Notes: generated from the sequence alone by a model not told the origin. A stretch of DNA of 64,000 nt from an uncultured Gammaproteobacteria bacterium (GCA_963797555.1 CAWCPV010000003.1:480001-544000); one strand, 5' to 3'. Positions 6,110-48,992 are shown, counted from the stretch's first letter. Translations and numbers: made by a program.

Positions 6110-6408
6110 GTCTCGTCTCCTCTGTTGGTACGACTTCCCATACGACCGCTGGGGCTGCCCGGCCATGCAGAAAGGAGCGCGCCCTTAGCCGTGTCTGCAG
6201 CCTCGCCTCCGATCTCGCTTGGCCCGCGTCCCGACCCGTCGCGGCAGCAGCATGGCCCGTCCACCGGCGCCGGTGGTCCGCTGGCGCAGGGACCGCAGCA
6301 CATCGCGTCGCGTCCCGCACCCGCGTGGGCTCGTCACGGGCACTGGGTTCCTCATTATGAGCGCGCGGGCCGCGGTTTTGGCCGCGCACCGTGGCCCGAC
6401 TGAGGGCC

Positions 6409-6642: not shown

Positions 6643-6753
6643 AGCCGCTCCACTCCGTTTGTGGTTGTCCAATCCTGGTGACACGCGGCCGGTGCTTCAA
6701 GCCCTGCCCGACGGCAAAAACCCGCTGCCGTGTCGACTCTATGCGGCGGTCGC

Positions 6754-7911: not shown

Positions 7912-7979
7912 ACCATGACGTCAAGCCAAAAGGGCCGACCGGCACGGCATCTCTGCCCACGGCCGACTCCGACCCGGGA

Positions 7980-12710: not shown

Positions 12711-14201
12711 GGTTCTTCCCGGAATCGTGTGGGTAGCAATGCCTATGCCGCAGCGGCATCTGCCTGATCTCTGACACCAGGGGGTGTGTTGAGCGGCGAG
12801 GCGGGCAGGTGGGCGAGATTGCCGGCGATGAGGTAGGCGATGGTGATGAGCGAGTGCGTGGTGCGGTAGCCCCGGGCGCGGGCCTTGGCGGCCTGGATGA
12901 GGGAGTTGATGCCCTCGGCGCGGCCGTTGGTGAGGCCCGAGTGGAACGCGGCGAGGATGCCGTTCCAGTGCTCTTTCAGGGTAGTGGCGAGGCGTTTCAT
13001 GGGCTGCAGGCGGCCGTGCCCAGCTATACCAGCGCCCGAGGGCGCTCTCGGCCTGCTCGAGGGTGCTGGCCGTGGCGTAGATATCGCGCAGCGCCTCCTT
13101 GAGGCGCCAGGCGCGGGCGGTCTTGAGGCGGGCGCGGGAGAGCCAGTGGAAGTCGGTGAGTTGGTCCCAGCCAGGTCCAGCGGGTGCCTCTGAGGGCGGG
13201 CTCGGTCTTGATCTCCTGGCGGCGCACCGCGTCGACCGCCTCGTTGGCGAGCTTGATCACGTGGAAGGCATCGAAGCTCACCGTGGCCTGGGGCAGGTGC
13301 CTGGCCACCCCGGCGCGGTAGGCGGCGGACAGGTCGATGCACACCTGCTCGATGGCCTGCGGGTCGCCGCCGTGCGCCTTGAGGTCGGCGGCGAAGGCCG
13401 CCACGGTGCTCTGGTCGCGGCCCTCGCAGGCGAACAGCAGGCGTTTTCCCGTGAGGTCATGGAACAGGCTGATGTAGTGCTGTTCACGCCGGGCAGCGGT
13501 CTCGTCCAGGCCCACAGCGCTCACCTGCGAGTGGTCCTCCTGAGCGCGGGCACTGCCTACGTAGTGATCGAGCACCCCCCACAGGCGCTCATCGCCCACA
13601 CCCAGGTGCCGAGCCACGGTCGCCACCGGCAGGGCCTGGCACAGCGTGACCACCAGCGCCTCCATCAGCGCCGTGAAGCCACTGTGTGCGCGCGCCCACG
13701 GCGCTTCGACCTGGGTCGTCTTGCCGCAGGCCTCGCAGCGCACCCGCGGCAGATGCGCGTGCAGGTACGCCCGTGACTTAAAGAAGCTCAGGTGCTGCCA
13801 ACTGCGCTCCCGGGTGTCGTGCACCGGCTGGCCTTGCACTCCGCAGGCCGGGCAGGCAAAGCGGCTGCCCTTGGCAAACGCCACCTCGAGGTCGATGCGC
13901 CCAGCCTCGGGGTCGAAGCGCACGTCGGTGACCTCCCAAGGCACCGTCAGGCCCAGTGCCGTGGTAAACAGATGCGTGGGCTGCACGGTGCTCCCCCCTT
14001 GGAGACGGCCTGTGGATTTGTGGACGAGCCCTGCGGAGCGGCCCGCGTCCCAAGGACCGTGTGGACAACCTCCCGGTTGCCCACACTCGCGGGCCTCTCG
14101 CCCACCACCCCACAAGCCCCAACCACAAGATGTTGTGATAAGCGACTAGTCAGGACAGATGCTACTTCACCACCGCGACCCACACAATTTCCGAAAGAGC
14201 C
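12711..14201 (-). mobile_element. ISL3-family insertion sequence, copy 1 (frameshifted transposase)
   Basis: Imperfect TIRs GG(T/C)TCTT..GG..T.GTGTGGGT; 8-bp target duplication CAAAGATG at 12703-12710 and 14202-14209; CPAC zinc finger, GLDET, FDAFHV, TNGRAEGINS. Confidence 0.92.
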
Positions 14202-19244: not shown

Positions 19245-19360
19245 GACGGAGTACCTCTTATGGCTTCATTGCGTATAGGGTGCAGTGCGCGTAACTGTCT
19301 CTCGCATCACCAATCAGCGACGAGAACAGATTACGTAGGCGTACCGCGAACACCACGCAT

Positions 19361-28864: not shown

Positions 28865-29004
28865 GTTGTGAATAGATCCGCTGCCGTCCCCAGAGCGGCG
28901 TTGCGCGGTCCTCGCTGCTTGCCCATGTGCTCGGCGTGTCTCGTACCCGCGCTCCCAGCGCCCCGCTCGCGGGCCGCTCGGGACGGTTTCTGCACAAGCT
29001 CTGA
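28862..29004. repeat. About 140-bp imperfect palindromic element beginning at the stop codon of the DsrE gene
   Basis: Ends TGAGTTGTGAATAGATCCG and CGGTTTCTGCACAAGCTCTGA are degenerate inverted repeats related to the 8819 TIR. Confidence 0.6.
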
Positions 29005-29048
29005 TACCCCGACCTCACCTATTTTGTAGCCGCTCGCCGTCGGTCCGC

Positions 29049-32000
29049 GTGAACGCGAAGTCCCCGCATTCCATTCTCGAGCCGCTGCTGGCCAGCGGTC
29101 CGCGTGACAAGGTACGCTGGGGCGGGCTTCAGGGCAGCGGCCTGGGGCTTGCCATCGCCGAGACCTCCCGCAGGCATGCGGGGCTTGTTCTCGTCATCGT
29201 TCCCGATGTCGCCACCGCCCACCGCCTGGAGCAGGAGTTACGTTTCTATCGTGGGGAAGACGAACGCTGTCTGCTACTGGGGCTTCCAGACCGGGAGACG
29301 CTGCCATACGACCTGTTCTCGCCGCACCAAGACATCGTTTCCCAAAGACTCGAGACCCTCTATCGGCTTCCCAGTCTGAGCGCCGGAATTCTCGTCGTAG
29401 CGGCTCCTACCGCGATGCACCGGCTCCCCCCGCGGATTCATTTGGAGTCCCGCGCGCTGCTGGTGTCCAGGGGTCAGCGGCTGCCTCTGGAGTCGTTGCG
29501 CGAACGCCTCCAGGTCGCCGGCTATCAATGCGTCGGGCAGGTCATGGAACGCGGAGAATTTGCCGTGCGCGGCGGACTGCTGGACCTTTTCCCCACAGGC
29601 AGCGGAGTGCCCTATCGCATCGAGCTATTCGACGACGAGGTGGAGAGCATTCGGATGTTCGACCCGGAGACTCAGCGCTCCACGGCACGCATGGATCAGA
29701 TCCGGCTGCTACCGGCGCGGGAGTTCCCGCTGGATGAGGAAGGCGTCACCCGGTTTCGGCAAGGCTGGCGCAGCACCTTCGAAGGAGACCCGCAGGCCAG
29801 CCCAGTCTATCGGGATGTCAGCCAAGGCTTCGCCCCGGCTGGCATCGAGTATTACCTGCCGTTGTTCTTCGAGCAGACTGCAACGCTGTTCGACTATCTG
29901 CCAGGCAGTACTCTGTGCGTGATTCTGGAAGACGTTGAGCGGGCGGCGGAGCGTTTCTGGCAGGACACCAAGCTGCGTTTCGAGCAACGCTGCCACGACC
30001 GGCAGCGACCCGTCCTCGCCCCCAGACAGCTATTCTTACAAACTCCAGAGCTCTTTGCGTCCCTGTCCGGTCTGCCGGCGGTGTACGTGAACGCGGGCCT
30101 GACGGAGCCTCGACAGGGTGCGCTCAACTTCGCTAGCGCCGCTCCCCCGACTCTCCGGGTCAGCGCCCGCAGCCATCACCCCCTAACCGCTTTGGAGGAA
30201 TTCCTGGAGACGTTCCCGGGCCGGGTGCTGTTCGTAGCCGACAGCGTCGGGCGCCGCGAGGTGGTGCTCGAACTGTTGCGTGATCAGAACATCGAGCCGC
30301 TGCCGGTGGACGGGTGGGGCTCCTTCTCGCAGTCTGACATCCGCCTCGGCATAACGGTCGCGGCGCTCGACCAGGGGCTGCTGCTGGCGGAGCCCCCGGT
30401 CGCTGTCGTCACCGAGGAACAACTGTTCGGCGATCGGGCGGCGCAGCCGCGCTCCAGGGAGCGGCCGGTCCGCGATCCGGAGTTGCTGGTGCGCGACCTT
30501 GCGGAGCTCGCGCCCGGGGCGCTGGTGGTCCATGAGGAGCACGGCATCGGTCGCTACCAAGGGCTCCAAAACCTAAACGTGGACGGAGTCGAGTCCGAGT
30601 TCCTGCTGTTGGAGTATGCCGGCGGCGATAAGCTCTACGTGCCGGTCGGCTCACTGCACGCCATTCGACGCTACACCGCCAGCGCCCCCGAGCAGGCAGT
30701 GCTGCACAAACTCGGCTCCGGCCAGTGGGAGCGGGCAAAGCGCAAGGCCGCGGAGCAGGTGCGCGACGTCGCGGCCGAGCTGCTGGAACGTCTATGCGCG
30801 GCGCGCGGCGCGCCGAGGGCATCGGTTCGGCATGGACACGGAAGCTTACCGGGCCTTCGCCGCCGCGTTCCCCTTCGAGGAGACGCCGGACCAGGAGGAA
30901 GCCATACGCAGCGCGCTCGCGGACATGCAGGCGGACACACCGACCGACCGGCTGGTATGCGGCGACGTGGGCTTCGGCAAGACCGAGGTCGCCCAGCGGG
31001 CCGCCTTCGTCGCCGTCCAGGACGGCAGACAGGTAGCGGTCCTGGTGCCGACGACACTGCTTGCACAGCAGCACTACCAGACCTTCCTCGACCGCTTCGC
31101 GGACTGGCCGGTCAAAGTCGAGAGCCTGTCGCGCTTCCGGTCACGCAAACAGCAGCAGGAGGTCTTGGAGGGCTTGGCCGAAGGGCGAGTGGATATCGTG
31201 ATCGGCACCCATCGTCTGCTGTCCCCGGATGTGCACTTCAAGCATCTCGGATTGGTGGTGGTGGACGAGGAGCACCGTTTTGGGGTACGCGACAAGGAAC
31301 GCCTGAAGGCGCTGCGCGCCGAGGTGGACTTGCTGACCCTCACCGCGACGCCCATCCCGCGCACCTTGAACATGGCTCTCTCCGGGCTGCGCGAGATCTC
31401 CGTCATCGCGACCCCGCCGGCGCGACGGCTGGCCATCAAGACGTTTGTCCGCGAGTGGGACGGGCCGCTCATCCGAGAGGCGGTGATGCGCGAGCTGATG
31501 CGGGGCGGTCAGGTGTACTTCCTGCACAACGAGGTGGAGTCCATCGAGCGCGCTGCCCGAGATCTACGGGGCCTGGTCCCCGAGGTCAGCCTCCAGATCG
31601 CCCACGGCCAGATGCGGGAGCGGGAGCTGGAACGCGTCATGCTGGACTTCCACCACCAGCGTTTCAATGTGTTGGTATGTACCACCATCATCGAGTCGGG
31701 GATTGATGTTCCGAGCGCAAATACCATCATCATCGAGCGCGCCGACCGCTTCGGTCTGGCACAGCTACACCAGTTGCGCGGCCGCGTGGGTCGCTCGCAT
31801 CATCAGGCCTACGCTTATCTCATCGCTCCGCCACGGGGCGCCCTCACGGCGGATGCGGCGAAGCGCTTGGAGGCCATCGAGTCGCTGGAGGAGCTGGGGA
31901 GCGGGTTCGTGCTCGCCACTCACGACCTGGAGATCCGCGGAGCAGGCGAGCTGTTGGGGGAGGAGCAAAGCGGCCACATCCAGAACATCGGGTTCTCGCT

Positions 32001-32550
32001 TTACATGGAGTACCTCGAACGCGCGGTGTCGGCCCTCAAGTCGGGGCGCGAGCCGGATCTCGAGACCGCCTTGCGGCGCGATACGGACGTCGATCTCCAC
32101 ATCCCGGCTCTGCTGCCCGAAAGCTACGTGCCGGACGTGCAACTGCGCCTTGTGCTCTACAAGCGCATTGCCAGCAGCACGACGCCGGAGGCCCTCCGGG
32201 ACCTTCACGTAGAGATGATCGACCGTTTCGGGCTGCTGCCAACGCCCGCCAAGAATCTGCTTCGCATCAGCGAGATGAGGCTGAAGGCGCGGGCGCTGGG
32301 GATTCGCAGGATCGACCTGGGCCCCCAGGGCGGAAAAGTCTTGTTCCAGGCTCAGCCGAACGTCGATCCCATGGCCGTCGTCAGGCTGATCCAGGGACAG
32401 CCCAAGATCTACCGCCTGGAGGGGCAGGACGCGCTACGCGTGAGCCTGTCTCTGGCGGACGCAGAGAGCCGTTTTCGCGCCGCCCAGAGTCTGCTGGACG
32501 CCTTGGGCACCGAAGCCGCGGCGGTTCCCCGTCAGCGCGCTTCCGGTTGA
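29049..32550 (+). CDS. mfd: Transcription-repair coupling factor (one frameshift near 30790)
   Basis: LPYDLFSPHQDI, VVHEEHGIGRY, CGDVGFGKTEVA, VDEEHRFG, QLRGRVGR. Confidence 0.96.
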
Positions 32551-32751: not shown

Positions 32752-34799
32752 TCAGTTCAACCCCAACGCCTTAAACGCCGCCTGGCGCATATCGCCGAAG
32801 AACACCGGGTCGACCTGCTCCAGCACGTCCGCGTTGACTTCCAAAAACTGCCGCTTGTTCTCGATCGGGATGAGCGCCCGTTTGGCCCCGTTGTCCATGG
32901 CGACCTGGAGCGGTTCGGTGAGGGAGCGCACGGGCTTGATGTTGCCCTGGATGCTCATGTCACCCAGGACCAGGAGCGCCGGCTGCGGGGGCGACTTACG
33001 CAGCGCGGAGTAGGCGGCAACGAAGAAGGCGACGCCGATCTCGGCCTCCACCTTGTTTCCGAGCAGGTCGATGACCTCGACGTGGAAGTCGGAGGTGTCG
33101 ACTTCCCGAGCGTACTCCGAACGCAGTCTTGTTCGCAGAGCAGGTAGCTGAAGGCCCTGGTCACGGACTCTTTCATCGCACCGCTAACGCCGCCCGCGAG
33201 CCTGAGCTTCCCGGTCCCGGACGACAAGGTGACCTCGACACGGTAGAGACCAACGGTGCCTTCTCCGCTCACGGATGCGGTATAGAGCGGTGCCGGGCGG
33301 CAGCGGGTCGGCGGAGATCAGGTCGCGACCACCCTGCTCAGGCACCCCGACGAACTTCTCCTCGCCGGTCTCGTTGACTTGGTAGCTGAACGAGGTCTGG
33401 TAGTACTCGAAGGAGCCCATCTTCTTGAGCTGCTCCTTCACCCGCCGGCGGCCTTCGATCGCGAACTGCAGGATCTCTTCGAGGTCGTCGCGCGAGACCT
33501 GGCCGTGCGGGATGGAGGATCTTCACCAGTCCCGGAGACGGTGCGGCGGACCGCCTTGCGATCGCGGGCGTTGAGGTGCGGCGCCGAGCGAAAAGTAGTG
33601 GTCGATGATCTCGGTGTAGTTGTGCTTGCGGAGGTCGCGCAGGGCCTCGGCGAGGTAGTCGACGACGAAGCCGTAGTGATCGGTGAAGTGCTCGTTGCGC
33701 ATCTTGGGCACTTCCCAGCCCGGCAGGTAGAAGTGCAGCCGGTCGATGAACGCCATGTCGTCGCGGATGACGTCGGGCAGTCGGCGCGAACAGGTGGCCG
33801 GTCTGCACCATCACGTCGACGGGCTGCTGGGTGTTGCCGAACATCGCGATGCTGGCGTAGCCGGCCATCGCCTCCTGGCCGCGCTGGAATTGGCCTGACT
33901 CGCAGTAGGTCTTCATCATGGTGATGACCTCCTTCGGCATCTTCTGGAGGTCGGCGACCTCGTCGAAGCCGATGGCATCCCAGATCTGGACCATGCCCTT
34001 GTAGCGGCCCTGCTGCTGCCCGAAGAGGTTGGCCACCGTCGTCGGGCCGGTGAGCAGCGCAGAGTAGGGGGAGAGCTCCTGCACCGCGTAGCTCTTGCCC
34101 GTTCCGCGAGGGCCCAGCTCGATGAGGTTGTAGTTGCGCTCGCAGAGCGGGATGAGCCGAGTGAGGAACAGCAGCTTGAGCCGCCGCTCCATCGACCGTT
34201 GGCTCGTAGCCCATGCTGCGCACCATGAAGTCGAGCCACTCGTCGGTGGTGAACTCGGCACGCAGCCGACGGTATTCGTCGAGATCGAAGGTCGCGAGCT
34301 GGATCGGGGTGAGCTTCTCGATCCAGAACGGGTACTTGCCCCTGGTCTCCTCGTCGTACTCGAAGCGCATGTCGATCTGCGCCCAGATGCCGCCGGTGAG
34401 AAGCCGGTCGAAGTCGCGCACGTAGTGGTCGGGGATGTGGACGTACTTGTGGCCGAAGTTCGTGACCTCCGCCCAGTACTGGGAGTCGACCAGGCGGACC
34501 TTCACCTTGTCGATGAAGGTGTGCCGGCCGTTCTCCTTGACCTTGCTCTGCGCCTTGGTACTCTCGTCCGGGCGGATGTAGTTGTCGGCCAGGGTGTCGT
34601 TGACCACCTGCAGCCCCATCTGGATCGCCATCTCGTCGGACGAGGCGCAGTACTTCCCGAGCAGGTACTCCAGCACGAACACCGGAACGTTCGCGCCGAC
34701 CTTGACCTTCCGCACCAGGTCCTTGCGGACGACCTTGCCGGCGAAGACGCGGTTGACCTTGTCGTCAAGGGAGTCGCGAGACGGGGCGGTTTCGGTCAT
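32752..34799 (-). CDS. brxL: BREX Lon-like protease BrxL (multiple frameshifts)
   Basis: GKVVRKDL, NVPVFVLEYLLGKYC, ELGPRGTGKS, AFIDRLHFYLPGWEVPK, C-terminal Lon-like domain; spread over about 6 ORFs. Confidence 0.88.
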
Positions 34800-34801
34800 T
34801 G

Positions 34802-34838
34802 TTGGTTGGTCGTCAGTCGTTGGTCGTCAGTCGTCAGT
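34802..34838. repeat. Heptamer array, downstream arm of four-helix-bundle cassette
   Basis: Plus strand TTGGTCGTCAGTCGTTGGTCGTCAGTCGTCAG, i.e. CTGACGA-type units on the transcribed strand. Confidence 0.85.
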
Positions 34839-35187
34839 GTCGGGATGACCGCAAGGCGTTGAGCATTCGACCCACGCCCGCGCAATCATCCATGATCAGA
34901 GCTAACGAGTCGTTCGGCAAAAAGCCCAACCGATGTGCCAGCTCCGCGTGGGTTTCCAATTCCATCAACGACCCGTACGCGATTGCACAGAAGCGCGTCA
35001 ACTCGGCATCTGTGCCTCGACCCCGTCCCTCGGCAATGCTCGACGGGACCGAGACTGCCGCACGGCGCATCTGGACGGTCAACCCGAACCGCTCATCCGG
35101 CGGGAAACTCTTCGTCGCTTCGTAGACATGTTCCGCAAGCAGCATCGCCTGCTCCCAGACCCGCAAGTCTCTATAGCCTTTGCTCAT
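34834..35187 (-). CDS. Four helix bundle protein (23S rRNA IVS/S23, Avd-like fold)
   Basis: YRDLRVWEQAM, FPPDERFGLTVQMRRAAVSVPSSIAEG, IAYGSLMELET. Confidence 0.92.
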   Translation of the reverse strand: MSKGYRDLRVWEQAMLLAEHVYEATKSFPPDERFGLTVQMRRAAVSVPSSIAEGRGRGTDAELTRFCAIAYGSLMELETHAELAHRLGFLPNDSLALIMDDCAGVGRMLNALRSSRH

Positions 35188-35189
35188 TG

Positions 35190-35368
35190 GCGGTCATCGG
35201 TCATCGGTCGTTGCCAAGGAATCGTCCGGCTGCCGCAGTCCTCCCGCTGACGACCGAAGACCGACGACCGGCGACTCTCCCTCCCTGACGACTGAAGACT
35301 GACGACCGACGACGCCCTGCGCCCTGCAGTCCTCCCGCTGACGACGGAAGACTGACCACCGACGATTC
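35190..35368. repeat. Degenerate heptamer arrays, upstream arm of four-helix-bundle cassette
   Basis: Mostly TCGTC(A/G)G-type units on the transcribed strand; GCAGTCCTCCCGCTGACGAC occurs twice. Confidence 0.85.
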
Positions 35369-37954: not shown

Positions 37955-38188
37955 TCACTCGCCCAAGGCGTCGAGAAAGCGCCGGATCAGCTCGGGGTGA
38001 TAGTGGATGCCCGTTTGGAGGGCGCGTTCGAGAAATGGCCTAACCTCGGAGATCACTCCCTCCCGTTTCGCCTTGCCCAATAGACCAAGCGCCCCGGTTA
38101 CTCTCAGCCCCACCGCGAGCGCCATGCGCCGCCCCTTCCACTCGTCGATGCAGACTTGCCCAATACCCTCGTCGATCCGGTTATCCAT
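37955..38188 (-). pseudogene. Internally deleted DUF3368 PIN-like toxin
   Basis: Only C-terminal CIDEWKGRRMA..GLRVTGALGLL part remains; compare full paralog at 44324. Confidence 0.75.
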
Positions 38189-38444
38189 GCCGAGCGAAAT
38201 CGATCTCTAGCTCCGCATCATCCGGCCGCAGATTGCTCATCGGAAACCCGATACGAGGCAGCGAGTAAAGAAAATCCACACGGCCCTTGCCACATAACTT
38301 GGCCGCTTGTCCGGAAGAGAGCTTACCCTGTTCGTAGAGCTGCGCCGCCAACAACAGACGAGCCTCATCGGCAAACTCCGCCGGGGACAAACCGAGGTTG
38401 ACGAGCACGTCATCGTCATAGTCGATGATTACTTGATGGGTCAT
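38181..38444 (-). CDS. UPF0175 family antitoxin
   Basis: LLAAQLYEQGKLSSGQAAKLCG..RVDFL. Confidence 0.88.
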   Translation of the reverse strand: MTHQVIIDYDDDVLVNLGLSPAEFADEARLLLAAQLYEQGKLSSGQAAKLCGKGRVDFLYSLPRIGFPMSNLRPDDAELEIDFARHG

Positions 38445-38445
38445 G

Positions 38446-38560
38446 TCAGGGTCCGGGGTTCAGGGGTCAGGGTTCGGTCGTGGGTCGTGGGTCCGTCAGT
38501 CGTCGGTCGTCGGTCGTCGGTCGTCGGTCGTCGGTCGTCGGTCGTCGGTCGTCGGTCGTC
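38446..38560. repeat. Compound heptamer array: GGGTTC(A/G)-type units then 8 perfect GTCGTCG units
   Basis: Read directly; perfect run at 38499-38560. Confidence 0.95.
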
Positions 38561-38641: not shown

Positions 38642-38917
38642 TCACTCACCGTCCCGTTCCTGGCCGCGCTCCAGCAAATCCAGGTCGGCTAGAATCTCGT
38701 CCGCGGTCTGCTGGAACGGCGTGACGCCGTATCTGCCAAGGGCATCGATGAACTCCGCGCGCGAGACCCCGGCGATCTCGGCGGCACGGCCCTGGCTGAT
38801 GCGCTCCAGCTCGTACCACTTCACGGCCGCGGCCATGCGCATCTCGCGAACGAACTCCTCGGGATCCTTGCGGACACTGGCCAGAACGCTGGGATCGATA
38901 TCGAAGGCTAGGTTCAT
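38642..38917 (-). CDS. UPF0175 family antitoxin (orphan)
   Basis: MAAAVKWYELERISQGRAAEIAGVSRAEFIDAL. Confidence 0.88.
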   Translation of the reverse strand: MNLAFDIDPSVLASVRKDPEEFVREMRMAAAVKWYELERISQGRAAEIAGVSRAEFIDALGRYGVTPFQQTADEILADLDLLERGQERDGE

Positions 38918-38997
38918 CGGGGGTTCCTCGGGTTCGGGGTTCAGTCGTCAGTCGTCAGTCGTCAGATGATAGCGAGTGCCGCGGTCTGGGTTCGGGG

Positions 38998-40335
38998 TCA
39001 GGGTTCGGCCTTCAGGAGTTCGGAGCTTGGGACGACCTCTGCTGAACCCTGACCCCTGGTGGACCCTGAACCTTGTACCCTTCTCCTCCCCGAACCCCGC
39101 ACCCTGGTCCCTGCCGGTGCGGGCGCCTCCAGGAGACTTTTCAGTGCATCCTTGACCGCGGCGGAGGTACGTTCGGCGATGAGTCGATCGATCTCATGTT
39201 GGGGGACCTTGCGGGGCGTCCACTTGCCGGGCTTCGCATTGAGCCCCGCGTCGTCGGTCTTCGGTCTTCGGTCGTCAGCAGAAGACGCCGACGACTGAGG
39301 ACTGACAACTGACGACTCCCCTGTCGACTGACGACTGAAGACTGACGCCTGACGACCGTCTTCCGGCTGACGCCTGACGACCGACGACTGATGACCCTTC
39401 TCCTCCCAGAATACGTCTTCCAGCCCATGCGCGATGGCGAGACTTCGATCCTTCGCGCACTTGGGCACGACCCGCTCGGGCCACAGGTGCATGGCGAGGT
39501 GCGCCCAGTCGTAGTCGCCGGCCACCAGCTTGTCCCAGCAGTCCTTGCACTCCCTCTGCCAGGCGCGGTGACGGGGCACCAGGCGCCACAGCGGCGAGAA
39601 GTTGATGATGACGCCGTCGTTGAGGTCCGGATTCCAGAGCGGAGCGACCCGGGCGACCTCCTCGCGGAAGGCACGCAGCTCCTCGACGAAGGTCTCCTGC
39701 TCCGCGATCTCCTTGCGCTGGCTCGCTGTCGGGTTGCCGCCGCCGTCCTGCACCAGGCCGCGTCAGCTTGCGCTCTTCGTGCTGGAGCTTGGGCGTCACG
39801 AAGTCGTTGAGGACCTGGTAGAAAGTGTCCTTGGTGAAGCGGTGGCAGTAGAGCCAGACCGAATAGCTTGCGCGACGGCGTGGTGAGCTGCCAGTAGATC
39901 GGCGCCTTGCGGCGGCTCTTGGAATAGCGCCGGATGTGCTCGGCGAAGAAGCTGCCGGCGAGCCAGCCCTGCAAGTCGTGGCCACGGGGGTCGAGGATCT
40001 CGGCGGCCTCCTGCCAGCGGGCGTCGGCGTCCTCGGCGAAGACGCATCGGAAGACCTGGCGTGCCCGGCCGGTGAGGTCGCGCCCATGGCCCGGGTCGTG
40101 CGACCAGGATGCCGTCCGCGGGGAAGTCGATGGGATAGCCGGGAGGCGGCCCCTCCAGCGGCAGCCCGTCGTCGCCCGTCAGCATGCCCGGCGAGCAGAC
40201 TGGCAGCGGATCGAAAGGCTCGGGCTCCACGGGCGCCGCCCGCTCGCCGGTGGCCAGCCGCAGGTCGAAGCGCCCCAATGCGACACCGACGAGCCAGTCC
40301 ATCAGCTCAGCGACGAGACCGGCGGGGTCGCTCAT
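38998..40335 (-). CDS. pglX: PglX C-terminal segment (frameshifted), separately initiated
   Basis: VGVALGRFDLR, YSKSRRKAPIYWQL, PDLNDGVIINFSPL, GDYDWAHLAM. Confidence 0.75.
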
Positions 40336-40568
40336 GCCACCTCGACCACCAGCCGGTGCCGGATGGCCGGCGCGGGCCGACCCAGCTTCTGCAGGCTCTC
40401 AAGGTGCAGGTCCAGCGCCTCGCAAGCGTGCGCGAAGGCCTCCGGAAGGGTGTCGCCGCTCGTGATGATCTCGGGGATATCCGGGAAGGTCACGCTGTAG
40501 GCCGGCTCCTGGGCCTCATAATCGACGGTGAAGACATAATCGCGATAGACATGGCGAGTGGTCATCAT
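40332..40568 (-). CDS. hicB: HicB-family antitoxin
   Basis: YSVTFPDIPEIITSGDTLPEA..HACEAL. Confidence 0.88.
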   Translation of the reverse strand: MMTTRHVYRDYVFTVDYEAQEPAYSVTFPDIPEIITSGDTLPEAFAHACEALDLHLESLQKLGRPAPAIRHRLVVEVA

Positions 40569-40801
40569 GGCTGCAGAAGCTCCAGAAGCTTACGAATGTC
40601 CGCGGGGTGGCAGTGAGCACGGCCGCCGTGGGGCCGCACCAGGGTCAGCAGCCGCCCGTCGGCGCGATGGTAGGTGCGGTGGCTGCCTCGGGCATTGAAG
40701 AGGACGAAGCCCTCGTAGCGCAGCAGCGCCTCGACCTCGGAGAACCGCACGGACCCGGGCGAGCGGCGCATGCGCTCGATGAGCTTCTCGCGTCGTGTCA
40801 A
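40565..40801 (-). CDS. hicA: HicA-family toxin
   Basis: VRFSEVEALL..EGF....RGSHRTY...PH. Confidence 0.85.
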   Translation of the reverse strand: MTRREKLIERMRRSPGSVRFSEVEALLRYEGFVLFNARGSHRTYHRADGRLLTLVRPHGGRAHCHPADIRKLLELLQP

Positions 40802-41856
40802 TCCAACTCCTCCCCGGCATCCTCATCGCCCCCGTCCCCAAGCTCCGCAGAGGCCAGCGCCGCGGCCCGGTCGGCCGTGGAGAAGCCGTAAAGATCGAAG
40901 CAGCGCTCGTCGATCTCCGCCTGAATGCGGGCGAGCTCGCCCTCGGTCTCCGCGACCCGGTCCGCCCAGGCCGCCCAACGCTCGCGAAGCCTCGCGCCCC
41001 CGACCTGCAAGAGGGCCGGCAGCACGAAGGCGTGGGAGGTCTGGGTGCGGGTGTCGAGGGAGCGCTTGAGGGACCAGGCGCGGCGGGAGAGGGTGGCGAG
41101 TGCGTTGGGTCGTCGTCAGCGTCGTCGGTCGTCGGTCGTCGGTCGTCAGCGGGGGGACGGGCGTGCTGCTGGATACCCCGACTTCGTAGGACTGCGCCAG
41201 CTCGACCGCCAACTGAAGCTCGACCAGCGCCCGGAAGGGCGGCTGTTGACCACCGCGAGCAGCGCGAGCAGGGTCTCCGGGTCGTCGCCCTCGACGAAGG
41301 CGGCCGGCCCCTTGTCCGCGAAGATGCAGCCCGCCGGCATCGCGCGGATGGAGAGGCCATTGGTCCGCCGCGGCCAGGTGAGGCCGGGGCGGAAGAAGCA
41401 GTCGACGTTCCGGGCGTTGCGAGTCCACTGTCCAGGATCGTCCAAAGAAGCTCGAAGTAAGTCTTCCTTCTGTCGGCTCCCAGTCAACCAGCCAGATACA
41501 CGTCGGCGTAGAAAGGGCTGAGAGCTCCGCCCTTGGCAAAAGGCACACCAACGTCCCTTCCCACGCAGGTAGCCCGGTCTCCCAGACCAAGGCGCAGAAA
41601 TCGAAAATCGTCCGCGCGTCGCCAGTCCCAGACTTCGCGTGTCGCTGTCCGCTGTCCTCAAAGTGGTGGCAAGTGTAGGAACAGTTCCTCGACTTCGATC
41701 GCTTACCCAGTACGCAAACGGTGAGCGCGGCACGGCGCGAAAGGACTCTGGATCGACATCGAACCGCTCCGAATGCGGTCGGGCGTTCTGATCGCCGTCG
41801 CGCAGCGCCGCCGCCTTGTCCTCGGCCTCGATGACGCGGAAGAAGGTCGCCTTCAT
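40798..41856 (-). CDS. pglX: PglX middle segment (target-recognition region; several frameshifts)
   Basis: VPRSPFAYW, FFRPGLTWPRRT, MPAGCIFADKGPAAF, EIDERCFDLYG; starts by ATGA overlap with the N-terminal part. Confidence 0.7.
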
Positions 41857-44115
41857 GCGCCTGTTCCTGAACCCTGCACCCCGAACCCTAACCGACCCTC
41901 CAAGCAATACGCCGCCGCCTCGACCATCGCATCGTCCATCACCCCGTAGCCGAGATCGGCGACGACGACCGGCGGGGCCTCCTTGAGGAGGATCTCCTCG
42001 CGCCAGCGTTGGAAGGAGGACAAGAAGAAGCCGGTCCGGGAGGTGATGGCGCCGAGGCGGCTCCGCGGGTGCAGCAGCCTGATGCCTCGTTCCACGAAGG
42101 CCGCGTACATGTCGTTCTTCGTGCGCGGCCAGGCGGATGACGCCCAGGAACGCACGCCTTCCGGGAATGCCCCGAATGGCGGATTCATGAGTACTACGTC
42201 GAAACGCAGAAGGCACAAGTCGATGAAGCCGAGCCCTCGCGCGGCGTCCTCGCTGAACAGGCGCCGCTGATAGGCTCGACCGTTCGAGGCGTGCTCGGCG
42301 TACGCACGAAGCGCGCGAAGGACTTCCTGCTCCGCCCTCCGCCAGCGCTCCTCGTCGAGTGTGCGAAAAAGCGTCCCATGCTCGCCGTGGATCTCCCGCA
42401 CGGCGTCGCGGATATCCTCCTCGATGCGCAGCAGGGAGCCCGCCTCGCCGGCAAGCTCCATACGCTCGAAGACGCGCGCGACGAGCTTTGCGAGGTCGGG
42501 ATCGAGGGCCGCGAGGAACTCTCGCCGCAGATCCGGCTCCCCGGGCATGGGCTCGGCCACGACGATATTGGTCTTCCGGATGGCGCGGCGCTTGCTGCGG
42601 CGCGATGCCGAAATCCTGATAGGCCCGCTGCGCCCGCATCCAGAGCGCCAAGGCGGCGATCTGCGCACAGCGGGCGTCGATGTCGATGCCGTGGAGGTTG
42701 TGCCTAAGGATGAGTCCCGGCAAGGCCAGGCGCAGGGCGTCGAGGTCCGGGTAGTCGTCGCGCAGGCGGCGCCCCGTCACCTCGGAGGCGGGCGAGTCCG
42801 AATCGGCCCAGGCCTCCTCGTAGATGACGAGCAGCAGGTCGAAGGCATAGAGCAGGAAGTGCCCCGATCCGCAGGCGGGGTCGAGGATCTTGAGGTCGCG
42901 GGGGTCTTTCTTCGGTCTTCGGTCGTCAGCGAATGCGTCGCCGGTCTTCAGTCGTCGGTCGTCAGCGGATGCGTCGTCTGTCTTCAGGCGTCTGTCATCA
43001 GCCGAGGAGTCTCCTGCTGACGACTGATGACTGACGACTGACGACACTTCCCCCGACGACTGACGACCGACGACTGACGACTGCTCCCCCGACGACTCTT
43101 CCCGCACCAGATAGTCCAGCTCACGGAGCCTGGTCTTGCCTTGCCGCATCTCGTACCAGATGCGTCCCAGCGTGTTGTCCGTGAGGAACTGGACCACATA
43201 GCGGGGGGTAAAGAACTGGTTCCGCACCGCAAGCTCGCGGGTGTTGCGCGGCGCCTGGCTTTCCGCGCGCATCTGCCGGCGCTCTTCGTCGCCGTTGAAG
43301 TACTGGTAGACCCAGCCGATGGTTTCGTCGAGCTGCCAGATGGTCGTCGGTCTTCGGTCATCGGTCGTCGGCCCCGGTCCTCCTGCCGACGACTGAAGAC
43401 TGACGACTGATGACAATCCCTCATCGTTCAGGATCCCCAACAGCTCCGCCAACGCCTGCCTCCGCGGCCACAGCAGGCTCGCCGGATCGCGCCGGTCGAA
43501 CAGCACCCGCACCTCGCGGCCGATTTCGTCGAACAGGCTCTCGATGTAGAGCCGGTAGCCGTGGTCCGGGAGTTGTACCAACCCCGGTGCCAGGCCGCAG
43601 AACTCCTTGAAGCCGGAGGATTGCTCGCCCCGGGAGATGCACTCCTGCACCAGCCCGCGAGCCTCGAGCATCTTCAGCGCCACGAACCGGTTCAGCGTGG
43701 TGAAGGCCGCCTCGCGCCGGAAGGCTGCAACTGCTTCGGAATAGTCATCAGTCGTCGGCCGTCTGTCGTCTTGGGGGAAGTCGTCAGTCGTCAGTCGTCG
43801 GTCGTCAGCGGTTCCATCGTCGGTTGTCGGTCGTCGCTCATCGGCGGGGGTGAGTTTGCTGACGACTGAAGGCCGATGACCGAAGACTGCCGACCGATGA
43901 CTGACGACCGACGACACCGCGTGCTCCACTGCGGCTACCAGCTTGCTCCGCACGACCCGCTGCGCCGCATCCAGATGGCTGCCAGGCTCGGCAGCGATGG
44001 TCCCGTCCAAGCGGATGTCGAAGACACCCTCCAATTGCTCCGCGAACTCCCGCTCCAGCAGCGCTCTGGCAGCCTGAGTAGCCTTTTGGATGCGGTTGCG
44101 GGTTTCTTTGTCCAT
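41853..44115 (-). CDS. pglX: PglX N6-adenine methyltransferase, N-terminal/catalytic part (frameshift near 42600)
   Basis: FTTLNRFVALK, IGWVYQYF, QFFTPRYVV, ILDPACGSGHF (motif I), MNPPF (motif IV). Confidence 0.9.
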
Positions 44116-44323: not shown

Positions 44324-44812
44324 CTATTCACCGACCTCGCTCAACAGCCGCCGAACCAATTCGTCGGACGCGTACAAGCCAGTTGCAAGCAACCGTCTGA
44401 CGACCGGCTCCGCCCAATCAATCAATCCCCTTGCCTTCGCGCGCCCGACGATTCCCAGTGTGCCGATGACCGCCAAGCCCATGGCCATCGCACAGCGGCG
44501 ACCTTCGCGGTCGTCGATGACGACTCGCTCCGCGTGATGCGCAAGCGCATGGGCAATGACCTGGGTTTCGCCAGCACCCAAGTCCCAGCTAAGAATCTCT
44601 GGGGCTGCGCCCACGTCTTCGACGATGACAAAGGCCGGGGCGTGTGAGATCCCTTTGAGGATTGTGCGACCGTCGGGCTTGGCGCCCACCTCCTCCGCAA
44701 CGGACCTCGGAACGTCGACCCGTTCGGCCATTTTGCCCAGTAGCCCGAGGGTTGCCGCCTTGCCGAGCAAGATCAGCGGCGAGGCGTTAACGACCCAGCG
44801 CTTAGACTCCAT
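44324..44812 (-). CDS. DUF3368 PIN-like toxin
   Basis: WVVNASPLILL, DLGAGETQVI, VIDDREGRRCA, VIGTLGIV. Confidence 0.9.
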   Translation of the reverse strand: MESKRWVVNASPLILLGKAATLGLLGKMAERVDVPRSVAEEVGAKPDGRTILKGISHAPAFVIVEDVGAAPEILSWDLGAGETQVIAHALAHHAERVVIDDREGRRCAMAMGLAVIGTLGIVGRAKARGLIDWAEPVVRRLLATGLYASDELVRRLLSEVGE

Positions 44813-45056
44813 GGATCTCGTCCGCCAACTCGTCGGGTGCGACCTGGCAGGCCGGGACCTTGCGCCGGTAAAGCTCATCCAGGAACTCGGCTCTTGTCAG
44901 GTCAGCAAGCTCCGCCGCCTTTCCCTGAGACACGATCCCCTGCGCATACCATTGCACCGCCGCGGCGATTCGCATCTCGCGGGCAAATTCGGCGGGCGCC
45001 AGCCGGAGAGCACCGAATGCCGAGGCGTCGAAGTCGAAGCTGATCGTAGTGGTCAT
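44802..45056 (-). CDS. UPF0175 family antitoxin
   Basis: AAAVQWYAQGIVSQGKAAELADLTRAEFL; overlaps toxin start. Confidence 0.88.
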   Translation of the reverse strand: MTTTISFDFDASAFGALRLAPAEFAREMRIAAAVQWYAQGIVSQGKAAELADLTRAEFLDELYRRKVPACQVAPDELADEIHGV

Positions 45057-45141
45057 GAGTCACCTCAAGGTTCTGGGGGCTGGGTACAGGGTGCAGCAGG
45101 AGTCGGCGGAAGGCCAGCTCCTGAACCCCGAACCCTGCACC

Positions 45142-48100
45142 CTACTGCACCAACACCTTCTTGCCCGCGGCGATCAGCTCCAGGCACTGCTCCTTCAGCC
45201 CGCCGAGCGCCTGATCGAGCTGTTCCTCGTTCTCCACGCCGCCGGCGAAATAGCTCGACGCGGAGACTTTCACCACGCGGCTGCCGTCGATGACGCGCAT
45301 CAGTTCCTCGATGGCCTTGTCCCGGCGCACGGGACAGGCGTCGAGGTCGGCGCGGAGCTGCGGTATGGACGGGTTGGTTGCCTTGGCGACGGTGTAGGCG
45401 GCCAGCGGCTCGGCGATACGGTCGCGGTGCTCCTCGCCGACCTGCTGCCAGCCGGGCGTTCCGCGAAGCTGCTGGAGAGCGGTTTCGTATGCCTGGACAC
45501 GTGCATCCAATGCCTGGTCCAGCCGGGCCTGGTAGGCGTCCTCCAGCGCTTTGGTGTGCTGGTCGATGGCCGGAAGCTCGCGATAGAAGGACTCTCGGGC
45601 CATCAGGTCCGCGAGCTTGTCAGCGTGCTCCCGATCGTTGTCGCCGAGGTCCGGCTCGTGTTGCAGGAAGGGCCCGGTGCTGTCGAGTACCTTGCGCGCC
45701 CGGCCGAGGTCGTGAAGCGCGGTTTCCGTCAGGGCGTTGGCGAGCTCCGCGCCGCGTTTGATGGCTTCCTTGAGCTCCTGGTGGCAAGCAGTGAATGCCT
45801 TCAGCGCCTGGCAGTCCCGCTGGCGGCGAAAGCCGACGATGTTGCTCAATGCCGTCTCCAGGATCTCGGCCCCCGGTAGGGCATGCTTGTCGAGCTGGGC
45901 GGCAACAGCGCGCAGGGTCTCCTCGTGCGCCTCCGTGGTCTCGCGGATGGTCTGGGCGATGACATTTTCCTCGTACTCCTGGATTTCTTTGCCGAAGCAG
46001 GTCTTGTAGGCTTCGCCGGCCTCGACGTAGTCCGCGAACTCGCAGTCGGTCGCGCGCGGGCGGAACGAGGCCTGGCGGAACAGGTTGTTGTTGGTGAAGG
46101 TGGTGCGCGCCTCCAGGGAGAGGGCGGACTCGATGACCTGGCCCTTGCTGGTCGCCTCGATCTTGCCGGCGCGCAGCAGCGCGATGACGAGCAGGCGAAC
46201 AACGTCGAAGTCCCAGCCGAAGGGTTCCTTGGCGAATTCGTCGGTCAGATAGCGGCCGCTGGCGACCTCGCCATAGCTGGTGCGGTTCTGATGCGTGCGA
46301 GCACCTCGGCGAGCGACGCCGCTCTCGACGTTGAAGACGGGTTTGCCGCCCTGGTCGCGCACCAGGCCGAGATCGGTGTAGACGGGTGTCAGTCCGCGCA
46401 GGTTCTCGGTGGTCAGAAGAGAATCGAGGTCGTGCTTGTTGACGCGGGCGGCGGCCTCCTCGAAGCGGTCGAAGACCTCTGGCAGGGCCTGAGACAGGAC
46501 CTTCGAGGCAGTCCTCGATACCTCGCTCGCCCCTTCCTCCGGGCTGCGGTCGTTGCCCCGGAAGAAGATGGTGCCGTTCAGCAGGGACTGCTTGATCAGG
46601 CGCCGCAGCTCGTCCTGGTGGCGGCGTTGCCTGAGCTTCTCCTCCGCGACCAGGGCGGTCTCGTCCTTGGTCTGGGCGCCGCGTTCCTTGCGGGACAGGA
46701 TCTCCCTGGAGCGAAAGATCTCGACGGTTTCACGGTCGATCGCATCGCCGAGGGCGGCAACCCAGAAGACGGCCTTGGTCTCCGTCTGGCTGCGCCTGCG
46801 GAGATCCTCGACTTGTTCGTCGTACTCGCTCCCCGCCTCGGCGAGGGTCAGGTGGAAGGGAATGTCCCCGTCGACCGTCAACCGCCCCCCGAGGTAAAGA
46901 CCCGCCTTGAAGAGCTTGACGTCGAGCAGACTGTGGGACGGTTGCGGCTGCCACAGGGCGGTGACGATCTCGGCGTGCAAGCGGCTGGTATCGCCTGGCT
47001 TGGGGGACAGACTGGAGCGCTGGCGTTCCCAGTCGTCTTCCGCGGGGGTGGGAATACGGTAGCCGTCGTCTCCGCGGCGGACCATGAGACCCTTCTCCAA
47101 GGCGTCCAGGGCCTGGCGGACCTCGGCAAGGCGCGAATCGGCATCGACGGCTGGGTGGAGCGCGGCGGCGATGTTCTCGGGCGTGCGGTGAATGCTGCGG
47201 ACGTATTGCAGCAGGCAGATCGCCTTGGCGACGGGCTGGGCGAGCGGGTGGGCGATCTTGGTACCGATGTCGGCGATCTTGCCGCGGATCTCGCTGCCGA
47301 TGTTCCCGGAGACGAGGTCGTAGATCTGATCGACCCGTGCGAGCTTCCCGACGGGCTCGTCGGCCAAGTCCACATCGGGATGGATGAGCAACTGCTGGGC
47401 GAGCTTGATGATGGTGCGGTTCGCGCCGCCGACGTGCCTGCTCGCACCGGCCTGGGTACGCAGGCCGGAGACGATCTGGATGATGAGGTCGATCTGGTAA
47501 GGGAGCAGCGGGTAGAGGTCGATGAAAGACTCGGTCGACAGCTCCGGAAGCTTGATGTCCGCCGTGATGCGGGTGTTGTCGGTCAGCCGCCCGCGGTGCT
47601 GGGTGAACAGCTCGCGGAGCAGCTTCTCCGCCGCAGCGTTCTTGGAGAGCACGCGCTTGCTGGTGACCTCGGAGATGTCCGACGGCTCCAGGTGCACCTG
47701 AAGCGGGAAACGGTCCATCAGACGCGCAAGCTCGACGCGGCGGTCGTCGAGGCCGCCGACCAGCTCCGTGAGCTTCTCCTGGGAGGTGACGACCACCCAC
47801 ATCTTGCCACGGCCGAGGCGCCCGAGGTTCTGCACGACGGCCTGGAGGTCGAGCATCTTCTGCACGTCGCGGGCGACGAACTGGCCGACCTCGTCCACCA
47901 CGAACAGCAGTGTCTTGCCGGGTCGGCGGCGCGACATGAGATTCAGTCCCCGTGCGGCGAGATCGCCGGGGGTGATGTCCGCGCGCTTCATGGCCGACTC
48001 GCGCCAACTGTCCACCGTCGCATAAGTGGCAGGGTCCAGCTCGTGCATCACGCGGCTCGCCTGCTGGACGGCGATGGCGATCTTGCCCTTCTCGAAGTCC

Positions 48101-48675
48101 CAGTCCTTGTCGAAGATCTGCCGATACTTGGCCTTGAAGGCGTCGAGGCGACCTTCCTCCTCCAGCGTGATCTCCAGCTCGGAAAGGTCCAGATCCCGCG
48201 CGTACCCCAGGCTCTGAAGGAAGAGCCGGTACATGATCTCGGTGATGCTCTGATTGCCGGTGCGGATGCCGCGGTCGGTGGAGACGTCGAAGATGACGGC
48301 CTCGGTGGGGATCTGCTCGGCGATGTTGCTCAGCAGGACCTGAATCTTCGGATCATGACAGCGCTGGGCGAGCAGCTCGCCGGCGCCCTGCCCCAGGATG
48401 TCCCGGTTGGCGAGGGCGAGCCCGAGGTACTTGGCGAAGCTGGACTTCCCGGAGCCGAAGAAGCCCGAAACCCAGACGGCGATGCCCTCGTTGGGTTTCC
48501 GCCAAGTGGTTTGGTAGTGGTCGAAGACTTCGCGGAAATGCGTGCGGATCGAGTCGGTGACGACATACTCGGCCAGCTCATCGCGGATGATCTGCTGGTC
48601 GGCTTGGTCGACCTTGATGACTTCCTCGATGCGCCGTTCGATGTCGCTGGCGAAAAGGTCTTTGATTGTGGGCAT
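45142..48675 (-). CDS. brxC: BREX P-loop ATPase BrxC
   Basis: IEEVIKVDQ, EYVVT, WVSGFFGSGKSSF, VDEVGQF, VTSQE, YPLLPYQ. Confidence 0.93.
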   Translation of the reverse strand: MPTIKDLFASDIERRIEEVIKVDQADQQIIRDELAEYVVTDSIRTHFREVFDHYQTTWRKPNEGIAVWVSGFFGSGKSSFAKYLGLALANRDILGQGAGELLAQRCHDPKIQVLLSNIAEQIPTEAVIFDVSTDRGIRTGNQSITEIMYRLFLQSLGYARDLDLSELEITLEEEGRLDAFKAKYRQIFDKDWDFEKGKIAIAVQQASRVMHELDPATYATVDSWRESAMKRADITPGDLAARGLNLMSRRRPGKTLLFVVDEVGQFVARDVQKMLDLQAVVQNLGRLGRGKMWVVVTSQEKLTELVGGLDDRRVELARLMDRFPLQVHLEPSDISEVTSKRVLSKNAAAEKLLRELFTQHRGRLTDNTRITADIKLPELSTESFIDLYPLLPYQIDLIIQIVSGLRTQAGASRHVGGANRTIIKLAQQLLIHPDVDLADEPVGKLARVDQIYDLVSGNIGSEIRGKIADIGTKIAHPLAQPVAKAICLLQYVRSIHRTPENIAAALHPAVDADSRLAEVRQALDALEKGLMVRRGDDGYRIPTPAEDDWERQRSSLSPKPGDTSRLHAEIVTALWQPQPSHSLLDVKLFKAGLYLGGRLTVDGDIPFHLTLAEAGSEYDEQVEDLRRRSQTETKAVFWVAALGDAIDRETVEIFRSREILSRKERGAQTKDETALVAEEKLRQRRHQDELRRLIKQSLLNGTIFFRGNDRSPEEGASEVSRTASKVLSQALPEVFDRFEEAAARVNKHDLDSLLTTENLRGLTPVYTDLGLVRDQGGKPVFNVESGVARRGARTHQNRTSYGEVASGRYLTDEFAKEPFGWDFDVVRLLVIALLRAGKIEATSKGQVIESALSLEARTTFTNNNLFRQASFRPRATDCEFADYVEAGEAYKTCFGKEIQEYEENVIAQTIRETTEAHEETLRAVAAQLDKHALPGAEILETALSNIVGFRRQRDCQALKAFTACHQELKEAIKRGAELANALTETALHDLGRARKVLDSTGPFLQHEPDLGDNDREHADKLADLMARESFYRELPAIDQHTKALEDAYQARLDQALDARVQAYETALQQLRGTPGWQQVGEEHRDRIAEPLAAYTVAKATNPSIPQLRADLDACPVRRDKAIEELMRVIDGSRVVKVSASSYFAGGVENEEQLDQALGGLKEQCLELIAAGKKVLVQ

Positions 48676-48681
48676 CGGTCG

Positions 48682-48930
48682 TCAGTCGTTGGTCGTCGGC
48701 GAGGGGTAACTGGTTCTTGTGTCGTTCGGCGGTAACGAAGAGCGCAGGGCATTGAGCATTCGGGCCACTTCTGCGCAGTCGTTCATGATCGACGAAAGGG
48801 ACAGCGCCGCATCTGGCCCGTCAGACCAAAACGCTCGTCCTGCGGGAAACCTTTCGTCGCTTCGTAGACATGTTCCGCAAGTGTCATCGCTTGGTGCCAA
48901 ACACGCAAGTCTCCGAAACCTGCGCTTATT
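48682..48930 (-). pseudogene. Internally deleted four helix bundle paralog, flanked by heptamer arrays
   Basis: GDLRVWHQAMTLAEHVYEATKGFPQDERFGLTGQMRR joined to IMNDCAEVARMLNALRSS; strong DNA similarity to 34834-35187. Confidence 0.85.
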
Positions 48931-48992
48931 TCTGTTCAGTCTTCGGTCTCCGGCATATTCTCCCGCGGCGACTGACGACTGACGACATCCTC

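Follow-up and report, generated by a model that had tools for sequence, protein, structure and literature searches.

Rickettsia palindromic elements (RPEs) are short palindromes that lie in frame in unrelated protein-coding genes and are translated in a way compatible with the fold of the host protein; in the account of PMC10969869, they form families of about 150 bp, each with a conserved sequence of its own and without a build of tandem heptamers; Rickettsia is where they are known to occur, and a cargo-bearing parent of them is not known. The 23S rRNA intervening sequence (IVS) found in Coxiella burnetii, as described in PMC4990558, has terminal inverted repeats forming a long stem around a PF05635 gene, the arm includes tandem heptamers (GACAGAT) whose number varies between strains, and the element is transcribed together with its host gene; 23S IVSs occupy helix 45 of the 23S rRNA gene, RNase III being the enzyme that excises them. 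Contingency loci with simple sequence repeats, which occur in restriction-modification and Pgl/BREX methyltransferases and include pglX of Streptomyces coelicolor (PMC9122589), switch through perfect direct arrays of homopolymers or of tetra- and pentanucleotides. Here we describe heptamer-armed hairpins lying in the reading frame of pglX, the methyltransferase gene of a BREX (bacteriophage exclusion) operon, at positions 38,998 to 44,115 of a 64,000-nucleotide stretch of DNA (the window) from an uncultured Gammaproteobacteria bacterium (GCA_963797555.1 CAWCPV010000003.1:480001-544000).

The hairpins share features with each of these systems. As in RPEs, palindromic inserts are found in frame here, in homologues of the host gene and in unrelated genes of other phyla, and they are presumably translated; they differ from RPEs, as these are described, in having heptamer arms, a repeat unit that varies by locus and a gene-bearing form in the same operon. 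Unlike 23S IVSs, they are located between and inside the protein genes of a defence operon, and the four copies in focus contain no open reading frame (ORF) of their own and leave the host frame open. With contingency loci they share a unit whose length is not a multiple of three, located in a defence methyltransferase, and one copy is off by one unit, but the arrays are imperfect inverted pairs. The hairpins behave like RPEs and by their arms belong with the IVS-type cassettes that carry PF05635 (S23p) genes, while the definition of neither covers them. We favour, with moderate confidence, the view that they are inherited, translated, RPE-like relics of IVS-type cassettes, i.e., gene-less members of a heptamer-armed insertion family. 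The open-access full texts that were searched contained no description of such insertions.

The host operon is a type 1 BREX operon on the minus strand of the window (brxE, brxA, brxB, brxC, pglX, pglZ, brxL), in which brxC (45142-48675, minus strand, 880.9 bits) is intact and profile matches to PglZ, BrxL and BrxE are also present. The pglX region encodes matches to PF20473 (MmeI_Mtase) and PF07669 (Eco57I), and the motifs LDPACGSG and LMNPPFG are legible in it; both the N6-adenine methyltransferase motifs and the operon neighbourhood are those of a type 1 BREX PglX, and the nearest relatives among the homologues listed are named PglX in their source annotation. The source genome is a metagenome-assembled genome (MAG) of 5.35 Mb with 84.6% completeness. 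For comparison, 120 PglX homologues (P numbers) were listed, 17 of which, chosen by hand to include eight with at least two SSVV/DDRR-type tetrapeptide matches and nine with at most one, were aligned with the window protein; at least two such matches are present in 12 of the 120. Related BREX loci (L numbers) comprised 78 non-duplicate loci with a total of 929 kb.

The sequence-only reading of this DNA had placed four in-frame hairpins in pglX, and all four were recovered as inverted pairs of heptamer arrays by Tandem Repeats Finder and an inverted-repeat search, with RNA folds that score z -3.1 to -9.5 against dinucleotide shuffles. On the sense strand each is built of a (GTCGTCR)n 5' arm, a short loop and a (YGACGAC)n 3' arm; the arms are able to form a long stem whose helices, in blocks of 6 bp, are interrupted at most seventh positions by a mismatch or wobble, and the loops are about 12-50 nt long and hold no ORF. 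All lie on the minus strand. Hairpin A (43744-43915; -81.8 kcal/mol, z -3.9) occupies site A in the N-terminal helical bundle and is translated as SSVVSHRSAVFGHRPSVVS...DERRPTTDD..DDRRLTTDD..DDRRPTTDD. Hairpin B (43342-43414; -44.7 kcal/mol, z -3.1), at site B, is a 72-nt stretch that replaces 6 nt and reads SSVVSLQSSAGGPGPTTDDRRPTT. Hairpin C (42909-43097; -123.9 kcal/mol, z -9.5) is at site C, in the linker before methyltransferase motif I (LDPACGSG), and its end directly precedes KKDPRDLKILDPACGSG. Hairpin D (39250-39397; -73.8 kcal/mol, z -3.3) lies in the C-terminal region between VFWEE and KWTPRKV. The single arm that had been reported around 41110-41150 corresponds to an array at 41109-41147 on the same strand (arm E), which reads LTTDDRRPTT... 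and has no fold (z +0.9). A second heptamer family, GGGTTCR/YGAACCC, which the sequence-only reading had missed, is also present in pglX, as a single arm at 41866-41893 (minus strand) that encodes the tail of the N-terminal half just before its TGA and as a hairpin at the 3' end of the gene (38983-39100, minus strand), in the 3' arm of which the stop codon (39000-38998) is located. Hairpins B and C share the motif GTCGTC-RGCRGGAGRAC, a non-repeat sequence directly following the 5' arm, with the site B hairpin of a related locus (L137) and with both hairpins upstream of an S23p gene.

Local reading frames are open across all four hairpins: A-C lie within a frame running from 44115 to 42604, and D within one from 39762 to 38998. 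It had been claimed that in-frame TGA is avoided, and indeed the 15 stop trinucleotides that hairpins A-D contain on their sense strand fall in phase 1 (3) or phase 2 (12), with none in frame. The seventh position is C in five cases and T in none in phase 0, as compared to six C and four T in the other phases, numbers that are too few to be read further.

Inserts of this kind are present at the same sites in homologues. Sites A, B and C are filled patchwise across the aligned homologues. Full hairpins are present at site A in the window, P0001 and P0006, with remnants of the left arm in P0003, P0008, P0047 and P0054; at site B in the window, P0001, P0013 and P0004, with right-arm remnants in P0003, P0008 and P0054 and a hairpin of the other family in P0002; and at site C in the window, P0001, P0006, P0041 and P0003, with no remnants. 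Six aligned homologues are empty at all three sites. Site C is also occupied in L141, and by another unit family in L144. At the DNA level, site B amounts to two codons, preceded by ...(D/E)L and followed by (V/I)W; L137 carries the window hairpin there in a longer form, L140 and L168 retain only the 3' arm, and L146 has a GGGTTCR-family hairpin in the same flanking context. Hairpin D is missing from P0004, and a same-family hairpin is found in the C-terminal region of L146. In P0024, site A holds a tandem 7-residue repeat, QRAEGSK, in two or more copies, which may represent a third repeat family at that place. Long open PglX frames containing inserts are encoded by L140 (1380 aa), L146 (1514 aa) and L144 (1621 aa), and the source of P0006 is a contig of 6.8 Mb from a named organism. 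Since the inserts are in frame at the same sites in long open homologues, they are older than the decay of the window copy, which is described below, and their frame has been kept in genes that look functional. The earlier proposal that the inserts are tolerated under selection for frame is thus borne out through the homologues with open frames of 1380-1621 aa and not through the dead-looking copy in which it was made.

The link to S23p genes comes from the same operon. Between pglZ and brxL, a cassette with GTCGTCR/YGACGAC arms (34794-35360, minus strand) carries an intact gene (34855-35172, in the operon direction) for a PF05635/TIGR02436 four-helix bundle protein with a score of 119.7 bits. 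Between brxB and brxC, a decayed cassette (48675-48986, minus strand; arms at 48675-48699 and 48969-48986) carries an internally deleted remnant of such a gene (48801-48911, also in the operon direction, 38.5 bits, model positions 2-38 only). Because the same arms bracket an intact and a decayed PF05635 gene in the same operon, the term cargo-less, which the sequence-only reading had used for the pglX hairpins, is apt. The S23p ORFs in the intervening sequences of 23S rRNA encode PF05635 proteins (as given in PMC4990558), and the S23p family resembles the Avd protein of diversity-generating retroelements (as given in PMC10053308). In L141, the locus most similar to the window, an 82%-identical S23p gene occupies the same position between pglZ and brxL, and at the brxB-brxC junction a gene-less hairpin exactly fills the space from stop to start. 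In six of six related loci (five of them non-duplicate) the orientation of the S23p genes is that of the operon, as it is for the two in the window and the one in L217. The unit of the in-frame arrays is that of the local S23p arms in the window, L141, L144 and L217; L209 is an exception, with TGTCCGT within PglX and TAGTCCA beside its S23p gene.

Two loci show complete cassettes inside a methyltransferase frame. In L144, an S23p cassette with AGTATGC-family arms (10100-10590) lies within the methyltransferase domain of the 1621-aa PglX frame. L217, a locus of the same genome as the window (C3:134-146 kb), contains on its minus strand (5310-7976) a PF01555 methyltransferase with an 888-aa frame, in which CCACTGN-family hairpins lie in frame and matching arms enclose a complete S23p gene; it adjoins a UvrD-like helicase and a ParE toxin. 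The host frame is +2 relative to S23p and contains no stops in either cassette; in L144 it runs without a stop across the whole 363-nt S23p gene. The corresponding +2 frame of eight intergenic S23p genes has 1-23 stops, and in synonymous shuffles that keep the S23p protein the host frame remained open in 1.6% and 6.5% of trials. An open host frame through whole cassettes therefore points to selection for a host protein translated across the insert. Removal of the inserts by a splicing-like process at the RNA level was considered and appears unlikely, as frame and stop avoidance are kept through the hairpins and through whole cassettes.

Where the inserts would be located in the folded protein was approached as the sequence-only reading had suggested, by homologue alignment and a structure model. 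The alignment gave the shared sites described above, and an AlphaFold2 model of the 504-residue N-terminal part, which is weak overall (mean predicted local distance difference test score, pLDDT, 59.8; predicted template modelling score 0.50), has residues 79-113, 242-253 and 326-418 as coil with pLDDT below 50 between confident helices. Hairpin A corresponds to residues 79-113 and hairpin C to residues 326-418 of this coil. Sequence comparison with the solved PglX 8c45 puts site C between its residues 283 and 303, a placement that is rough because the solved PglX structures align in two short blocks only (E ~1e-17). The N-terminal bundle is, according to PMC11341690, the less conserved part of PglX. 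In the model, weak as it is, the inserts appear to fit loops.

The sequence-only reading had assumed that each hairpin lies within a continuous ORF. This holds locally, for A-C and for D, each in its open frame, and does not hold for the gene, which is split, houses other genes and has at least eight frame changes and an in-frame TGA (~41650); the window pglX is not one intact ORF. Its N-terminal part (41853-44115, minus strand) encodes the helical bundle and the methyltransferase and has one frame break at ~42601. Its C-terminal part (38998-41856, minus strand) consists of two pieces (41856-40798 and 40335-38998) and contains many frame breaks. The TGA of the N-part (41855-41853) overlaps the ATG of the C-part (41856-41854), and this split at 41855/41856 is a natural break: N-halves of about 645 aa with the same end residue are present in many homologues, and the position matches the hinge at residues 654-659 that joins the methyltransferase N-domain of the solved Salmonella PglX to its C-domain, as described in PMC11341690. 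In all eight related loci tested, the halves are each in a single frame, and in six of the eight the hinge split houses other genes: an antitoxin and a PIN protein in L141 (10935-11685), L138 (9752-10584) and L137 (2942-3655), a ParA-like ATPase and a gene of no assigned function in L172 (10929-14223) and L196 (9836-13131), and Fic and DUF6932 in L209 (11049-14057). Within the C-part of the window gene lie hicA (40801-40565) and hicB (40589-40332), both on the minus strand, and the three hicAB/pglX junctions are overlapping stop and start codons (TTGA, ATGA and ATGA). A search for sequencing runs listed no RNA data and two DNA contig sets with 6% of the sampled words. In contigs of relatives from these two metagenome runs, which are mostly less than 95% alike to the window and do not represent the source strain, the hicA part has apparently been swapped for about 170 nt that include heptamer repeats.

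Frame changes were located by tblastn with four full-length homologues at ~42601, 41700, 41490, 41240, 41130, 40170, 39872 and 39763. Three of them (~42601, 39872 and 39763), read by eye, are in CGCG-containing contexts (TCGCGC, TCGCGC and ACGCGG), which could be systematic base-calling error or chance. The brxL gene (32752-34826) is likewise in at least four pieces in differing frames (model positions 3-195, 424-498, 493-554 and 556-675), and the start of pglZ is seemingly displaced. Elsewhere in the genome, all five long housekeeping genes that were found (dnaE, uvrA, gyrA, secA and valS) are open; rpoB and rpoC were not found in this check of the genome. One frame break each is present in lon (16805-19265) and mfd (28872-32550) of the window and another in a second polymerase III alpha gene of the genome. 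Those in lon and mfd are probably sequencing errors in the MAG, which bears on the trust to be placed in the pglX breaks. The frame breaks in pglX number ten or more; their density is about 2 per kb, far over background, and because of this excess over the housekeeping genes we judge pglX and brxL likely to be decayed, with some of the breaks possibly being errors. As the gene is split and most likely decayed here, the hairpins of this copy are relics. It had been argued that in a dead gene the preservation of frame would be chance; this copy does look dead, but chance does not follow, as the inserts predate the decay.

The repeats are concentrated in this locus. A search of the whole genome for (GA[ACT]GACN)x3 and its complement gave 14 matches, each of them between 35249 and 43916 of the window, in the BREX locus, and 18 of the 130 arrays with a period of 7, 14 or 21 in the genome are within the 16 kb of that locus. 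The sole other hairpin cluster of the genome is that of L217, with a different unit and an S23p gene in another DNA methyltransferase. As had been reported, no such array is present in brxC, pglZ or brxL of the window. The 78 related loci contain 32 array clusters, of which 14 are inside PglX (250 kb; one of these, a 9-mer in L180, is doubtful), 7 are beside S23p homologues, and none is in BrxC (187 kb) or PglZ (89 kb); units vary by locus (GTCGTCR, GGGTTCR, AGTAKGC, CCCCCGA, TGTCCGT). A genome-wide miniature inverted-repeat transposable element was rejected, every copy being in one locus.

In a sample of 400 genomes of the phylum, the pattern was found in three, searches at the family and order levels covered this genome alone, and a scan of one genome per species returned more than 121 loci with the same array unit in many phyla. 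PglX, BrxC, PglZ and toxin-antitoxin genes accompany none of the 121 same-array loci (the sole match, in L125, is of repeat peptide to repeat peptide), so that a repeat tied to BREX was rejected as well. These loci are mostly intergenic: an ORF of at least 900 nt spans 38% of them as compared to 77% of random positions. Some GACGACY arrays lie within long open frames, which encode DnaE, UvrA (three arrays), GyrB, DnaG, a non-ribosomal peptide synthetase and HerA (loci L047, L070, L031, L016, L093 and L087), in hosts that belong to Terriglobia, Chthonomonadales, Candidatus Daviesbacteria, Chloroflexia and Bacteroidales.

A scenario that would account for these data begins with a cargo-bearing form, in which a PF05635 (S23p, Avd-like) gene lies between a (GTCGTCR)n 5' arm and a (YGACGAC)n 3' arm. 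Such elements may have inserted, in an ancestor of the clade to which this PglX belongs, at a small number of permissive places, namely two loops between helices of the poorly conserved N-terminal bundle, the linker that precedes motif I and the C-terminal region. Later they would have been passed on, worn down to single arms, lost or replaced. Working genes would translate the inserts as low-complexity, probably disordered loops, with the 5' arm giving Ser, Val, Gly, Arg and Gln and the 3' arm giving Asp, Arg, Pro, Thr and Leu. The survivors would be those with a length that is a multiple of three and without in-frame TGA, hence the preservation of frame. Further change would proceed by unit slippage and segment replacement, a change of 7 nt breaking the frame. 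The descent of gene-less hairpins from cassettes, the translation of the inserts (as their sequences suggest) and the absence of an adaptive role are likewise what we infer.

Several observations weigh against this scenario. The direction of descent could be the reverse, with S23p genes landing in pre-existing hairpins, and among the same-array loci elsewhere an S23p gene is within reach in 3 of 121 (68 of the 121 loci span at least 6 kb). Hairpins A and D do not have the loop motif that B and C share with the S23p-adjacent hairpins. Depending on the homologue, site B takes GTCGTCR or GGGTTCR and site C takes GTCGTCR or AGTAKGC; differing unit families at one site mean that re-insertion or replacement in place is needed in addition to simple inheritance. 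Counts such as 14 clusters in PglX versus none in BrxC or PglZ include inherited copies and therefore overstate the number of independent events. Finally, because the structure model is poor overall, the placement in surface loops rests mainly on alignment gaps.

It is also conceivable that the hairpins are a phase-variation switch, as the sequence-only reading had suggested, in which slipped-strand gain or loss of 7 nt turns pglX, and hence BREX, off and on. The unit length, which is no multiple of three, the strain differences in heptamer number in the Coxiella S23p intervening sequence (PMC4990558), the known phase variation of PglX in Streptomyces coelicolor and the frequent disruptions of pglX stated in PMC9122589 are consistent with it. 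So are two length differences: the region of arm E, from CTG to TGGTCC, is 79 nt long in the window versus 72 nt in L141 and L138, which read it as TPVPPLTTDDGRPTT in a single frame, and the window frame shifts exactly there; in a relative's contig, hairpin C has one additional 7-nt unit, TCTTCGG. The two larger differences seen in relatives' contigs, on the other hand, from 127 to 40 nt in hairpin C and from 88 to 31 nt in hairpin D, are multiples of three. Array lengths are unchanged in two near-identical contig pairs (L141/L142 and L146/L147). Imperfection of the coding arrays, in which no more than about four identical units follow one another, should lower slippage. Many other frame breaks of the window gene lie away from repeats, and the excess of 7 nt may therefore reflect ordinary decay or an assembly error in a repeat. 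We conclude that the units slip, while a programmed switch is only hinted at and is, in our estimation, unlikely. An RNA-level role appears unlikely to a similar degree: the stems would be RNase III substrates for cutting or destabilising the polycistronic BREX mRNA, or would act in stop-start coupling. The predicted RNA stems are strong, hairpins are located exactly between the stop and the next start at brxB/brxC in both the window and L141, every S23p cassette seen is co-directional with its host operon, and RNase III cuts the stem of the Coxiella intervening sequence in vitro according to PMC4990558. Against this, nearly every seventh position of the stems is mismatched, a search of Rfam returned a single sub-threshold match (Actino-pnp, 27 bits versus a gathering score of 47.7), and frame and stop avoidance through the inserts and whole cassettes implies that the mRNA is read intact at least part of the time.

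Still less probable is that the hairpins arose as independent self-complementary microsatellite expansions that have nothing to do with S23p or any mobile element. Unit families do differ between loci, and arrays of this unit elsewhere are mostly single arms free of cargo, with the rarity of nearby S23p genes given above; the 140 same-unit elements comprise 65 R, 58 F and 11 RF. The polarity of paired elements is fixed, however: 11 are R-then-F, and one (FFR) includes F-then-R. In addition, in-frame and S23p-adjacent hairpins have a non-repeat loop motif in common, the window, L141, L144 and L217 each have a unit family that agrees with that of the local S23p arms, and the remaining 5.3 Mb of the genome lacks the family. 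Assembly artefacts, which an incomplete MAG with sporadic single-base frame breaks in lon, mfd and the second polymerase III alpha gene might suggest, are extremely improbable as an explanation, since orthologous inserts are found at the same codons in independent assemblies from several sources, including the 6.8-Mb contig, and since the hairpins preserve frame.

The view that the hairpins are gene-less relics of S23p cassettes bears on PglX as a protein. PglX is the specificity and methylation subunit of BREX and is being engineered for new target motifs, as reported in PMC11341690; the three N-terminal sites and the one C-terminal site that accept 20-60 extra residues in natural variants provide a map of its permissive positions, and at its hinge the gene tolerates a complete split in which other genes are housed. 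The locus also connects in-frame repeat hairpins, for which RPEs have been the only comparison to date, the enigmatic PF05635 genes and defence islands, and the two host methylase frames that stay open through a whole S23p gene are part of that connection. If the family is mobile, it would represent an undescribed way for selfish DNA to remodel defence genes without killing them. A broader proposal, which we put forward tentatively as a possibility, is that heptamer-armed S23p cassettes are distinct and widespread operon-riding mobile elements that colonise defence genes and above all DNA methyltransferases (the PglX studied here, that of L144 and the second methylase). They would insert co-directionally with the host frame staying open, shed gene-less hairpins of the same unit and mark the sites at which PglX splits and toxin-antitoxin or other modules lodge, and their hairpins would give RNase III- or slippage-dependent control of BREX methylase dosage.

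Some other features of the window were recorded. Three toxin-antitoxin-type modules lie between BREX genes (37955-38459, 38642-38947 and 44324-45059); they are named UPF0175-like/DUF3368-like from a reading of their translations, searches of Pfam and NCBIfam having given no match. Runs of GACGACY and then of GAACCCY units are located directly upstream of two of the start codons in these modules, among them a near-perfect array of 12 units (38474-38560). A second PglZ-domain gene is located near the start of the window (335-2113), and two copies of an ISL3-family transposase gene, 43 kb apart, flank the region (13027-14145 and 56954-58105).

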